A stretch of DNA of 64,000 bases, taken from positions 64,001 through 128,000 of IMG/VR virus record IMGVR_UViG_3300021387_001774; one strand, given 5' to 3'. Positions 9,438 through 62,963 of this stretch are shown here, piece by piece. The translations under genes and the position numbers were made by a program. The notes below the pieces were generated by a model. The model ran no database searches. It was given only the letters and a program-made list of their open reading frames with translations, and was not told where the DNA came from. The DNA is from a virus. Taxonomy: Duplodnaviria; Caudoviricetes. Position 1 is the first letter of the stretch; each line of letters starts with the position of its first letter.

Positions 9438-9603
9438 TTTATAACTACTGTTTAACTCAACTATTTAATTATATATTATATTAATGAAGTAACCTGTATA
9501 GGTGAAACATAATAATTATAAGAGGGATAATAAGAGAAATAAAACCCCACCTCAGTGAAGAGGTCTACTGATAAAAAGGGATACAAACACAAGGGAAGAA
9601 ACT
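9438..9603 (+). repeat. Family-1 promoter plus structured 5' leader, copy A
   Basis: ~165 bp nearly identical to 25991-26152; contains TACTGTT, TATATTAT (9472-9479), two hairpins and the aaacacaagggaagaa RBS. Confidence 0.9.
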
Positions 9604-9987
9604 ATGGGAAAGTTTAACGATTTTATGCAGAAGTGTGACGACCTCAGAGTAAAAGAAAACAAAGAAAGAGAGCTTGAGAGGGCTCTCGAGAGATCAAAAG
9701 ATATATCCCGTTTAAAGGATATTTTTGATCCAAGTTATTGGGCGGATATGAGATGGGGATCATTTGACCTCATCCATATTCGCTGCAATACGGCGGAAAT
9801 GGTGAACGATTTCGAAAGAATCGTTGAAAAATTAACTGGCAGGAAAATCATGACAACGGAGCTCTGCAATGTATTTAAAAATACGTGTGGAGATCGTACA
9901 TTGTCAGTAGAGATCAAAACATCTTGTCGAGACATCGATAAGATTTTTGAAAGCATTTTGGAGTTTATCGATTTATATAAACTCTAA
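9604..9987 (+). CDS. Hypothetical cargo protein of cassette A
   Basis: ATG immediately after the conserved leader; GC higher than flanks. Confidence 0.8.
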   Translation: MGKFNDFMQKCDDLRVKENKERELERALERSKDISRLKDIFDPSYWADMRWGSFDLIHIRCNTAEMVNDFERIVEKLTGRKIMTTELCNVFKNTCGDRTLSVEIKTSCRDIDKIFESILEFIDLYKL

Positions 9988-10001
9988 TTAACACCCGCAA
10001 A

Positions 10002-10056
10002 ACAGAAAAACTCGAAAAGGTTTTTCTGTACCAGCTCTCCTCTGGTTTCTTTTTTT
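10002..10056 (+). terminator. Family-1 double-hairpin 3' trailer/terminator, copy A
   Basis: acagaaaaac/gtttttctgt, then accag/ctggt, then a T-tract; homologous to 26465-26519. Confidence 0.8.
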
Positions 10057-10098
10057 GTTTTTAATAAAATAGCAGGATTAATATCCTGCTATTTTTTT

Positions 10099-18136: not shown

Positions 18137-18637
18137 ATGAAAATGACTAAAGAAGAAAGAAAAGAACGTAAGAGAAAATATGATAAGAAATATTATGAAT
18201 CTCATAAAGATGAAAAGAAGAAATTTTATAAGGAACATAAAGATGAACTTAACGAAAAAAGTAAGATGTATTATGAGACTCATAAAGATGAAAGGAAAAA
18301 GTATTATGAGACTCATAAAGACGAGTATAATGAAAGATCTAAAAAGTATAAAGAGATCCATAAAGAAGAAAAGAGAGAATATTCAAAGAAGTATTATGAA
18401 TCTCATAAAAATGAAATAAAAGAAAGATCTAAAAAATATAATAAGATCCATAACGAAGAAAGAAAAGAGTATTATAAGAAGTATTATGAAACTCATAAAG
18501 AAGAAAGGAAGAAATATCGTGAGGCTCATAAAGAAGCAAGAAAAAAGCATAATAAAAAGTATTATGAAACGCATAAAGATGAGCTTAAAGAAAAAAGGAA
18601 GAAGTATCGTGAGGCTCATAAAAAAGAAACAGTTTAA
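18137..18637 (+). CDS. K/E/Y/H-rich repeat protein (KKYYETHKEE repeats)
   Basis: 11- and 15-aa repeats; paralog of 62454-62963. Confidence 0.8.
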   Translation: MKMTKEERKERKRKYDKKYYESHKDEKKKFYKEHKDELNEKSKMYYETHKDERKKYYETHKDEYNERSKKYKEIHKEEKREYSKKYYESHKNEIKERSKKYNKIHNEERKEYYKKYYETHKEERKKYREAHKEARKKHNKKYYETHKDELKEKRKKYREAHKKETV

Positions 18638-25916: not shown

Positions 25917-25990
25917 AAAATACTCCTTATGGATAATATTTAAATGAATTTACGTATATTATCTTGTCATTTTTATTAATGTTTATGTAT

Positions 25991-26152
25991 TTTATAACTA
26001 CTGTTAAACCTGACCTCTTAATTATATATTATATTAATGAAGTAGGTCGTATGACTGAAACATAATAATTATAAGAGGGATAATAAGAGAAATAAAACCC
26101 CACCTCAGAGAAGAGGTCTACCGAAAGGAGATATAAACACAAGGGAAGAACT
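25991..26152 (+). repeat. Family-1 promoter plus structured 5' leader, copy B
   Basis: Near-identical to 9438-9603, with compensatory changes in the first hairpin. Confidence 0.9.
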
Positions 26153-26452
26153 ATGGAAAAAACATATTCGATAATGCCGAATGGTATTAAAATACAGGAT
26201 GACCTGTTACCCATGTTATCATGGAGCAGGTGCTCCGGTGATGCCGGTTATAACGGCAGGTCATGGGACGGTTCAGAATCATGGACCGTCCTGGTTGAAG
26301 CACAATGCGGTGAAAACCGCATTGTAGCTTTGGGATATGAATCCCGAGATCCTGATGGAAATTGGGATGTCGGCGTATATCCCGACCACGGCATCTTCGT
26401 AGGTGAAGATGCCTACGAAGATGCCTGTGCTTGCTGGAGGTTCGATTGGTAA
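26153..26452 (+). CDS. Hypothetical acidic, Trp/Cys-rich cargo protein of cassette B
   Basis: ATG immediately after the conserved leader; GC visibly much higher than the genome background. Confidence 0.8.
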   Translation: MEKTYSIMPNGIKIQDDLLPMLSWSRCSGDAGYNGRSWDGSESWTVLVEAQCGENRIVALGYESRDPDGNWDVGVYPDHGIFVGEDAYEDACACWRFDW

Positions 26453-26464
26453 GCATAGGTTAAA

Positions 26465-26519
26465 ACAGTAAAACTCCATAAGGAGTTTTCTGTACCGGAT
26501 TGCTACGGTTTCTTTTTTT
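26465..26519 (+). terminator. Family-1 double-hairpin 3' trailer/terminator, copy B
   Basis: acagtaaaactcc/ggagttttctgt, then accg/cggt, then a T-tract. Confidence 0.8.
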
Positions 26520-26614
26520 AATTATATATTATATTAATGAAGTACGTTATACTTATTATTAATATTAATTGAAGTAGAGATGATACTACTATAAACATAA
26601 GGGAGAAAAGAAAT
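26518..26614 (+). repeat. Family-2 promoter plus structured 5' leader, copy 2
   Basis: Shares gaagtagagatgatactactataaacataagg with the 18047 copy. Confidence 0.9.
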
Positions 26615-27439
26615 ATGAGCAACGTTTGTGACTGTTGTAAAAAAGGAAAACCTTGGATTACAATTAAAGAATACCAAGGAGAATGTAGAGGTTCTACAGA
26701 AGTACATTTATGTAGCGATTGCTATAAAAATACTCCACAAATAGAATCAGAAAAGTATAATGATCCTGAAATGAATTATCCTAGAGATGATTCAATTTAT
26801 TCTTGTGATTATGAAAAATGGAGGTCAAGTATGATTATTCTCACATCGATTAAACGTTTACGTGGTGAAAAACCAAACAGACGTAAACCAACTACTAAAC
26901 CAAACTATAGAGAGTTTGAAGTTTTCCTTGACAAAATTGTATCCTATGCTATACAGAGTTTGAATCATTTTAGAACAAATGATTATCTCGAAGATCTAGG
27001 TTTTGGTAGATATAGATATTCGACAAAATTTCAATATGTATATACCGCTTATAATAAAAAGCCTGGAGAAAAAATTCACAGTTTAACATACCGCAATTTG
27101 TTTGCAGCATTGTATGAATCATTAGAAGGCTACGAAACTGAATATAAATTTCTTGAGTATGATAAAGATGATCCATTTAGTGATGCACGTTATTCTTCTG
27201 GTAATCGACTTGAAGAAATTGTTAAGACTATCGAAACCATTTATAAAGATTTACGAGACAAAGAATTGATTGATCCAATATTTGTATTAAATAAAAGATT
27301 TGGATTAAAAAATATTTGCTCTAATATTTTGAATAAATACGGTTTTTACAATATCGGTATAGTTAAACATGAAGACTTAACAATGGATATAATCTTCTAT
27401 TGTAAGTACGATGAACTCAAAAAAGTTTGGGAAAAGTAA
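26615..27439 (+). CDS. Hypothetical early protein with N-terminal Zn ribbon
   Basis: CDCC...HLCSDC at the N-terminus. Confidence 0.75.
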   Translation: MSNVCDCCKKGKPWITIKEYQGECRGSTEVHLCSDCYKNTPQIESEKYNDPEMNYPRDDSIYSCDYEKWRSSMIILTSIKRLRGEKPNRRKPTTKPNYREFEVFLDKIVSYAIQSLNHFRTNDYLEDLGFGRYRYSTKFQYVYTAYNKKPGEKIHSLTYRNLFAALYESLEGYETEYKFLEYDKDDPFSDARYSSGNRLEEIVKTIETIYKDLRDKELIDPIFVLNKRFGLKNICSNILNKYGFYNIGIVKHEDLTMDIIFYCKYDELKKVWEK

Positions 27440-50478: not shown

Positions 50479-50570
50479 ACTGCTACAAGATATATGGGTT
50501 CAACAAGTGGTCCGTAGTCTATATATTTTAACTACTGTTCAAACCTATCTTTCAATTATATATTATATAT

Positions 50571-62453: not shown

Positions 62454-62963
62454 TCAACAATTAGAAGAAGATCTTTTAATCGTGCTTCTTTTCCAATAAT
62501 CGTCTAATTCTATTTGATCTTCTTCAGTCCATGTCATACCTGATAAAGCTATAGCTTCATCTTCTAGTATAGTTCCTTTACCTAACTTAGTCATAATAGA
62601 TCGCTTTAAAGAATCATCCCCTAGTTTCAGTATAGTAAGATAATTCTCAATAGAAGAAAAATATCGAAAATACTTTTTTCTATAAAACTTAGAAACACGT
62701 TCACCTAATATACAGAAATCATAATTCTTTCCACGATATTTTCTAAGTTTTTCAAGAAGTATTTCCCTATTCTTTTCGCGATATTTTTTACATCTTTTAG
62801 CGATTTTATCGTGATTCTCTTTATGAGCCTCACGATATTTCTTCAAATACTCGCTCATTTCTTCTTTATGAGCCTCACGATATTTCTTCAAATACTCGCT
62901 CATTTCTTCTTTATGAGCCTCACGATATTTCTTCAAATACTCTTTTCTTTCTTCTTTAGTCAT
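62454..62963 (-). CDS. K/E/Y/H-repeat protein with unique C-terminal domain
   Basis: Exact 45-bp tandem repeats (KKYREAHKEEMSEYL) at ~62819-62942; same MTKEERKE start as 18137-18637. Confidence 0.8.
   Translation of the reverse strand: MTKEERKEYLKKYREAHKEEMSEYLKKYREAHKEEMSEYLKKYREAHKENHDKIAKRCKKYREKNREILLEKLRKYRGKNYDFCILGERVSKFYRKKYFRYFSSIENYLTILKLGDDSLKRSIMTKLGKGTILEDEAIALSGMTWTEEDQIELDDYWKRSTIKRSSSNC

Follow-up and report, generated by a model that had tools for sequence, protein, structure and literature searches.

A relocating, probably early-gene cassette with a structured leader and a predicted tandem terminator in an uncultured phiKZ/AR9-like jumbo phage

The window analysed here is a 64,000-nucleotide stretch of viral DNA, bases 64,001-128,000 of a single 263,686-bp contig (IMG/VR record IMGVR_UViG_3300021387_001774), and its source is an uncultured phiKZ/AR9-like jumbo phage. 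Coordinates are those of the window unless "genome" is stated. Around positions 25,991-26,519, a small open reading frame (ORF) is enclosed in a compact unit, which we call cassette B. In our overall reading, to which we assign a probability of roughly 0.7, the cassette combines a promoter for a phage polymerase, a structured leader that standardises the stability and translation of a swappable cargo gene, an insulating tandem terminator, and ends that serve as homology for recombination. A second cassette (A) lies in the same window, and further copies are found elsewhere in the genome and in metagenomic relatives (contigs with L numbers). The parts of cassette B and its right-hand neighbour are as follows.

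25993-26009, + strand: upstream box TATAACTACTGTTAAAC, whose ACTGTT lies exactly 17 nucleotides 5' of the TATATATTAT core.
26018-26039, + strand: early promoter of the virion RNA polymerase type, core TATATATTAT at 26023-26032, predicted start G 26039.
26045-26056, + strand: leader hairpin 1, GGUC-GUAU-GACU, +7 to +18 of the predicted transcript.
26084-26096, + strand: purine-rich block UAAGAGAAAUAAA, unpaired, with columns invariant or nearly so (alignment A1).
26102-26117, + strand: leader hairpin 2, ACCUC-AGAGAA-GAGGU.
26118-26130, + strand: leader hairpin 3, CUACC-GAAA-GGAG, abutting hairpin 2.
26141-26155, + strand: Shine-Dalgarno-like AAGGGAAG and start codon.
26153-26452, + strand: cargo B, an ORF of 99 amino acids with no function assigned, 48% GC.
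26465-26493, + strand: trailer hairpin T1, ACAG-U-AAAACUCC AUAA GGAGUUUU-CUGU, with covarying apical pairs and an invariant stem base.
26494-26519, + strand: trailer hairpin T2, ACCG-GAUUGCUA-CGGU, and U-run, the intrinsic terminator proper.
26518-26614, + strand: early promoter and "type 2" leader of the following gene, opening with a 27-nucleotide perfect repeat of 26018-26044, predicted start G 26539.

The evidence supports the leader as a conserved, covarying and strand-specific structured 5' untranslated region (UTR) without an Rfam family. Leaders of this kind, termed type 1, are present in four copies in the genome. A and B are the copies inside the window; C and D begin outside it, at genome 246,076 and 257,451. 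The ORFs behind them are mutually unrelated, with 127, 99, 134 and 189 amino acids for A to D. Eighteen leaders from this genome and its relatives were aligned with plain MAFFT, and RNAalifold, run on that alignment, recovered part of hairpin 2 and independently found hairpin 3. The latter had been missed in an earlier reading of this stretch made from its letters alone (the original prediction). A covariance model built on the helices of hairpins 2 and 3 was then used to search 655 kb. It returned 20 strong leader matches, of which this genome accounts for 7 and metagenomic relatives for 13, and nothing else convincing; together they comprise 19 distinct sequences. Three diverged copies, termed "type 3", start at genome 219,127, 230,321 and 246,682.

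Hairpin 2 shows double compensatory changes at four of its five pairs. Copies A and B differ only in its loop (AGTGAA and AGAGAA), just as the original prediction described, and the stems of relatives read TCTAG/CTAGA, ACTAC/GTAGT, TCTAC/GTAGA, TCAAC/GTTGA or GCTTC/GAAGC. The loop is mostly retained, with an AGAGAA-like sequence in most copies. In hairpin 3, one pair switches between C-G and U-A and another between U-A and U·G, and 100% of the cells are paired. Over the 19 distinct sequences, 89.2% of the cells in hairpins 2 and 3 are paired, compared with 28-54% when the partners are slid, and 26 cells carry double changes versus 0-4 in the slid controls, a level reached in 0 of 500 shuffles. 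The U·G pair accounts for 10 of 18 cells at its position in hairpin 3, and G·U pairs also occur in hairpin 1 stems. Because of these G·U pairs and of strand asymmetry, a structure in the sense-strand RNA is favoured over a structure in DNA.

The unpaired parts of the leader are conserved as well. The purine-rich block reads TAGGAGAAATGAA in the type 3 copies, and the block ACA(C/A)AAGG(G/A) ahead of the ATG is kept in all copies. Thus described, the 114-nucleotide 5' UTR would fold near its 5' end into a stem-loop and farther on into two adjacent hairpins, which lie between a purine-rich single strand and the ribosome-binding site. Its most likely function would be to set a standard message stability and translation initiation for whichever foreign-looking small gene stands behind it. 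The original prediction had called this RNA undescribed, and for the leader Rfam bears this out. A gathering-threshold scan of the window gave no matches, and an E-value scan of 25950-26620 gave noise only, the top match scoring 18 bits against a gathering score of 80. In IMG/VR, the exact leader 29-mer had no hits, and a degenerate leader pattern matched only in L006, L071 and L017.

Two other candidate functions within the leader were rejected. A long-range CCC/GGG pairing that masks the ribosome site in a single-sequence fold is lost in L017, L048 and the type 3 copies. A leader peptide in cassette B was discarded, as the type 1 frame begins with ATA and is interrupted in L017. The type 3 leaders at genome 219,175, 230,349 and 246,726 (L080, L081 and L082) read TAGGAGAAATGAAAGGG where type 1 reads TAAGAGAAATAAAACCC. 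This change creates a Shine-Dalgarno site and an upstream ORF (ATG AAA GGG ..., 7-12 codons) that runs through hairpin 2.

Hairpin 1 was the starting point of the original prediction, which noted that its stem changes between A and B while the pairing and the GTAT loop are kept. The two sequences are found as quoted, ACCT-GTAT-AGGT at 9492-9503 in A and GGTC-GTAT-GACT in B, both flanked by GAAGTA and GAAAC, and the two copies outside the window agree (AGTC-GTAT-GACT in C, ACCT-GTAT-AGGT in D). The position and length of hairpin 1 are variable, and it was therefore tested by loop anchoring in 179 distinct early 5' ends from the genome and its relatives. When GTAT lies within the first 26 nucleotides downstream of an early promoter, four or more pairs close it in 10 of 37 cases, by 10 different stems, whereas the genome-wide rate is 2.6%. 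For GTT, the corresponding figures are 27 of 73, nine stems and 2.8%. GUAU and GUU loops are thus about 10-fold enriched at early 5' ends. In addition, the first 32 nucleotides after the start fold at -4 kcal/mol or better in 57% of the 63 early starts but in only 16% of random genome windows (Mann-Whitney p ~1e-10). The loop-anchored and folding results therefore indicate that a 5'-proximal hairpin with a G/U-rich loop is general to the long-leader early messages of this phage group and is not specific to the cassettes. A reading of the hairpin 1 palindromes as double-stranded DNA operators was rejected, as the half-sites differ completely and several stems require G·U. Stems of this kind fit RNA, and not double-stranded DNA operators or cruciforms.

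The conservation of loops bears on a different view of the leader, in which it serves chiefly to be recognised by a trans-acting factor (an RNA-binding protein, a nuclease or a small RNA) that co-regulates all cassette messages. Such a factor could, for example, shut the messages off at a set time, activate them or export them from an early compartment, and the leader would not be a passive platform for stability and translation. Loops are indeed kept while stems change, with AGAGAA variants in hairpin 2 and GUAU or GUU in 19 distinct 5' hairpins. The purine-rich block does not vary, the stability of hairpin 1 would not by itself suffice for protection, and the ribosome site of the sister "type 2" leaders has its complement in a promoter-driven sequence at genome 212,858. 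However, the genome holds no trans-encoded antisense of at least 12 nucleotides to the type 1 ribosome site and only chance 11-12-mers to the leader, and no candidate binding protein was identified. The loops also vary: A and L006 have a 7-nucleotide hairpin 3 loop, and L032 and genome copy 246,682 have other hairpin 2 loops. We consider a factor of this kind a tentative and rather unlikely alternative. In its most explicit form, which we hold to be similarly doubtful, the leader would be an address tag whose YGUAUR/YGUUR and AGAGAA loops and purine block are read by a dedicated phage factor handling all cassette messages, and the factor would act by export from the early compartment, translation licensing or timed destruction. 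If this were true, any gene placed between leader and trailer would thereby become a member of an early post-transcriptional regulon.

At the other end of the cassette, the most plausible interpretation of the trailer is a tandem Rho-independent terminator. T1 has 11-13 bp, usually with one bulged base, and is followed without a spacer by T2 (4-6 bp) and then the U-run. The whole begins 10-20 nucleotides past the stop codon. An exact-pattern scan found five trailers in this genome, after A, B, C, D and the type 3 cassette E, and about 30 in viral and metagenomic contigs. All 23 distinct variants of the exact pattern fold into T1, T2 and a U-run at -12 to -21 kcal/mol. Eleven further metagenomic matches were discarded as chance occurrences without hairpins, and a search of 185,579 bacterial and archaeal species genomes gave two hits, both due to chance and likewise without hairpins.

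The trailer stems had also been claimed to covary, and both do so. Among 25 distinct sequences in a model-based alignment, 96.8% of the cells are paired (34-57% when slid), and 18 cells carry double changes (0-3 when slid). The covariation is limited to three apical T1 pairs and one pair of T2, the fourth, which changes from G-C to A-U in five sequences. Nine of the 16 pairs never vary, and the T2 loop GAUUGCUA and the rest of the trailer are almost invariant. The original prediction had taken leader and trailer together as an undescribed cis-regulatory RNA pair. The claim is thus partly supported: the leader is a structured RNA outside the Rfam families, with a probable regulatory role, but the trailer is better taken as a tandem terminator, of a kind already described. 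Nor are the two always found together. Trailers also stand behind unrelated leaders (L017, L029-L031, L033, L040 and L041), and ordinary terminators stand behind some leaders (genome copies 219,127 and 246,682, and L071). Leader and trailer thus behave as modules that can be separated.

In vivo, transcription would end at this double hairpin and U-run and leave the unit insulated, often abutting the next early promoter. T2 and its U-run overlap the following promoter at 26510-26539, and the trailer with the promoter at 26518 is a terminator-promoter junction. Similar junctions are common, as 31 of the 63 early promoters lie at most 6 nucleotides from a T-run, 21 of these being preceded by a stable hairpin.

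The covariation in leader and trailer can be set against the possibility that the likeness of the copies simply follows from recent duplication or gene conversion and that structure is not under selection. The leaders of copies A-D have 88-100% identity to one another, more than half of the trailer pairs (9/16) are fixed, and concerted evolution is expected of repeated recombining modules. Pairing is nevertheless kept where the sequence changes. The 26 and 18 double-change cells of leader and trailer contrast with 0-4 in slid controls and were reached in none of 500 shuffles, so that the covariation on which the original prediction relied holds in the collected homologs. Moreover, at least six hairpin 2 stems and 19 hairpin 1 stems, all different, all pair. 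We regard an origin of the likeness without selection on structure as very improbable.

Transcription of the cassette would be the task of the phage itself. The promoter of cassette B is an exact match, at 26023-26039, to the AR9 early consensus AAATATATATTAT-(6N)-G+1. In AR9, the start of early promoters has been experimentally mapped 6 nucleotides downstream, and transcription was attributed to the virion polymerase (PMC5312081). From this match, we infer that transcription starts at G 26039 in cassette B and at G 9486 in cassette A, and that the phage's own, probably virion-packaged, multisubunit RNA polymerase initiates there, presumably early in infection. The predicted start lies upstream of the hairpins, and therefore all leader hairpins should be transcribed. 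The early promoter motif has 63 matches genome-wide, in orientations that agree with the genes, and a 27-nucleotide perfect repeat, TTAATTATATATTATATTAATGAAGTA, is found at 9465, 26018 and 26518 in the window. A test for sigma70-like host promoters found no TTGACA-type -35 element, the -35 region being a T-run or the ACTGTT box.

A CTGTT box is located 16-18 nucleotides upstream at 12 of the 63 early promoters, among them all four type 1 cassettes, and is nearly mutually exclusive with an adjacent terminator T-run. Sites of the fuller form ACTGTT(C/A)AA are 25993-26009, 9440-9456, 50527-50540 and nine further promoters, with a C- or G-rich spacer. This box may mark a promoter subclass or be the site of a regulator. 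The same ACTGTT box is also present in window region 50522-50820, together with a variant early promoter, about 230 nucleotides of GC-rich sequence without an ORF, and a terminator. By this layout, the region looks like a stand-alone structured RNA gene; it had no match in the Rfam scan of the window.

The type 2 leader behind cassette B belongs to a family of at least nine copies, each combining an early promoter with a GUU-looped 5' hairpin, GAAGUAGAGAUGAUACUAC and, ahead of the ATG, AAACAUAAGGGAGAAA. Copies are found at window 26518-26614 and at genome 3008(-), 48208(-), 82051, 127054(-), 137922(-), 237633 and 255984. It is the ribosome-site region of this family that is complementary to the sequence at genome 212,858 (-). 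A type 2 leader behind an early promoter also precedes an ORF of 166 amino acids at window 18137-18637, which is made of 33/45-nucleotide tandem repeats; similar repeats occur at 62818-62958.

The exchange of cassettes between sites, here called sockets, is visible in comparisons with relatives, which were aligned with the genome by blastn. Cassette A provides one such socket.

9440-10054, + strand: cassette A, with box (9440-9456), promoter (9465-9486), leader (9486-9603), cargo of 127 amino acids (9604-9987) and trailer (10002-10054).

Flanks remain collinear at 87-96% identity while the contents of the sockets differ. Socket A of the close relative L071 contains a different cargo, of 62 amino acids, and only an ordinary resident terminator. 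In our genome, two terminators in series follow cassette A (10030-10098), its own T1/T2 trailer and then a hairpin with a T-run, and the second is homologous to the only terminator of L071. From this arrangement, cassette A seems to have arrived complete with its trailer and to have been placed before a resident terminator.

Cargo B itself is found in several places. It occupies socket B, beside the start of a giant ORF, in this genome, in L006/L047 and in nine more contigs (L083-L091). L067 and L092/L093 have it in socket C, and L094 has it in a third socket, beside homologs of the 213-214 kb region. In socket B of L042, the same box-promoter and trailer enclose another leader type and an ORF of 47 amino acids. 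Socket D of L038 carries the type 3 E cassette, and socket E of L063 a type 1 leader with other cargo. L006 has another gene in place of the one that follows cassette B (26615-27439), the exchange lying between the leader and the terminator of that gene. Synteny breaks at the promoter/leader and at the trailer in L006, L042, L038, L063, L067, L071, L092 and L094. These comparisons show that relatives move cassettes between genome positions. The conserved ends probably have a second, DNA-level role, by analogy with the PeSLs discussed below. The promoter/leader and trailer repeats would act as homology arms in homologous recombination, by which leader-cargo-trailer units would be exchanged between sockets and between related phages.

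The small cassette of L042 (6590-6920) has a leader hairpin AGAGAGGGTG/CACCCTCTCT, the 47-amino-acid ORF, and a near-palindrome AGGATATATATTATTATATCCT ahead of the standard trailer. The same cassette fills socket B in L042 and is inserted at genome ~100,055 in L044 and L059.

The movement of cassettes would also be expected if the hairpins were single-stranded DNA recombination sites, attC-like or other, for a site-specific recombinase, which was the second proposal of the original prediction. In favour of this, the 3' end of the ORF carries T1, a long hairpin with imperfect pairing and a bulged base, and an inverted TACTGTT/AACAGTA core flanks the cassettes. However, no candidate for a PF00589 tyrosine recombinase was found in the 94%-complete genome, while 14 of 14 control genomes were matched. 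The U·G pairs, which fit a strand-specific RNA, are mismatches in DNA and on the other strand, and the hairpins lie inside the predicted transcript, which ends in a U-run. Socket A of L071 has a leader without the trailer, which argues that the two ends are not an obligatory pair. The terminal inverted repeat described for cassette B is present as written, at 25999-26011 and 26457-26470, but it is not conserved beyond the 7-nucleotide core. The extension of this core to 13/14 nucleotides is absent from the L006/L083 ortholog and looks like chance, and the core, the only part that recurs in other cassettes, is two separate elements, the ACTGTT box and the ACAG/CUGU base of T1. On these grounds, single-stranded DNA sites are highly unlikely, and we prefer the reading of the ends as homology arms.

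The cargo genes are small and isolated in sequence space. Cargo B had no usable match in Pfam, PHROGs or the ESM Atlas, and only three relatives were found, all within this phage clade. It is nevertheless a real gene under purifying selection. Among five homologs, the ratio of nonsynonymous to synonymous change (dN/dS) is 0.06-0.26, and the synonymous sites are 60-76% different. In the same cassette pairs, identity is 92-98% for the trailer and 76-86% for the last 72 nucleotides of the leader, and thus the non-coding ends evolve far more slowly than neutral sites. The slow change could come from purifying selection, from gene conversion among copies, or from both. None of cargo genes A-G has a Pfam or PHROG family. 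Six of these seven genes have a GC content of 37-48% and the seventh 31%, compared with 29.5% for the genome, and this composition suggests a recent foreign origin.

The rest of the genome agrees with the phage group named above. The IMG/VR record is classed as a virus and is 94% complete, and a tRNA scan found none. The same genome encodes the following.

Giant ORFs of 2811, 2406 and 1611 amino acids.
Further genes for a tail sheath, a large terminase and a DnaB-like helicase.

A piece of the RNA polymerase beta' subunit gives the one match to phrog_3015. Its closest cultured kin are AR9/PBS1, phiR1-37 and Staphylococcus jumbo phages, at ~27% identity. Elsewhere in the genome there are two matches to PF00562 (beta-like) and two to PF00623 (beta'-like), one of each pair being under the curated cut-off. 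These pairs would fit two split multisubunit RNA polymerases, as in phiKZ and AR9. Relatives were found solely among metagenomic contigs, and a "distant" blastn search of cultured phages with the cassette as query gave no match.

Several points weigh against the overall reading. Infernal used the structure in fitting alignments A3 and A5, which biases the pair counts towards structure, and many copies share descent, so that the covariation counts are not independent events. The folding energy of the whole leader is not unusual (z = -0.98), and hairpin 1 of cassette B, with only 4 bp and ~-2.6 kcal/mol, is marginal alone. The recurrent GUAU/GUU and AGAGAA loops point to recognition by a sequence-specific factor rather than to simple shielding. 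Lastly, the strong identity of T2 and its loop across diverged phages could reflect gene conversion instead of selection.

Among known systems, the closest parallel is with the PeSLs (promoter-early stem-loops) of the T4-like phages RB49/phi1, PST and nt-1, in which a terminator stem-loop is combined with a strong early promoter (Arbiol 2010, PMC2839356; Comeau 2014, PMC4122927). Both are repeated terminator-promoter composites before small ORFans, in both the close relatives differ by replacement, gain or loss between the repeats, and in both the repeats provide homology for exchange. Unlike PeSLs, the cassette promoter matches the AR9 virion polymerase consensus and is not sigma70-like. The cassette has a structured 5' UTR of ~115 nucleotides with three covarying hairpins, which PeSLs lack, and its terminator is a specific, highly conserved double hairpin. 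PeSLs also form mini-circles. Here the 27-nucleotide perfect direct repeats at 26018 and 26518 would allow such excision.

AR9 shares with the cassettes the early promoter TATATATTAT-(6N)-G and long 5' UTRs. Its early 5' UTRs have a common motif of unknown significance, and strong terminators are located at its operon ends (PMC5312081). However, the beta' subunits are only ~27% identical, and the AR9 motif was not described as a covarying fold or as a part of swappable cassettes. Conserved terminator motifs are also found in phiKZ and 201phi2-1, where two motifs can join into an elongated hairpin (PMC11512511). These are likewise jumbo phage terminators with common sequence motifs, whereas the trailer has two separate adjacent hairpins and a U-run, is unrelated in sequence and is tied to mobile cassettes.

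With respect to the leader and the mobility of cargo, two classical systems invite comparison. The 5'-terminal stem-loops of the E. coli ompA leader and of the B. subtilis aprE and phage SP82 leaders stabilise messenger RNA. They resemble hairpin 1 in lying within the first nucleotides of the message, and hairpin 1 is general to a transcript class. In contrast, hairpin 1 of cassette B begins at +7, has only 4 bp and a conserved loop sequence, and is a predicted fold. Integron gene cassettes carry small unrelated ORFs, each with an imperfect attC hairpin behind it, and they change place, as the phage cassettes do. The differences are that no integrase was found, each phage cassette has its own promoter, the hairpins are of the RNA type (G·U pairs, U-run), and the R/L box pattern is missing. 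When the attC palindrome was looked for in T1, the arms read AAAAC/GUUUU with a variable apex and there was no GTTRRRY box. Set against these systems, the trailer is not new as a kind, the leader is an RNA structure with good support but no Rfam entry, and there is no categorically new mechanism.

In phiKZ-like jumbo phages, most early genes are small ORFans that are thought to subvert the host, and how they are acquired and expressed is poorly known. The cassettes provide a plug-in architecture for such genes, a promoter, a folded leader, a cargo and a conserved terminator, which relatives relocate. They extend the PeSL idea from T4-like phages, which rely on the host polymerase, to phages equipped with transcription machinery of their own. 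As a defined element, the leader lends itself to tests of stability, translation or factor binding, and the cassette may serve as a ready expression module for the engineering of such phages.

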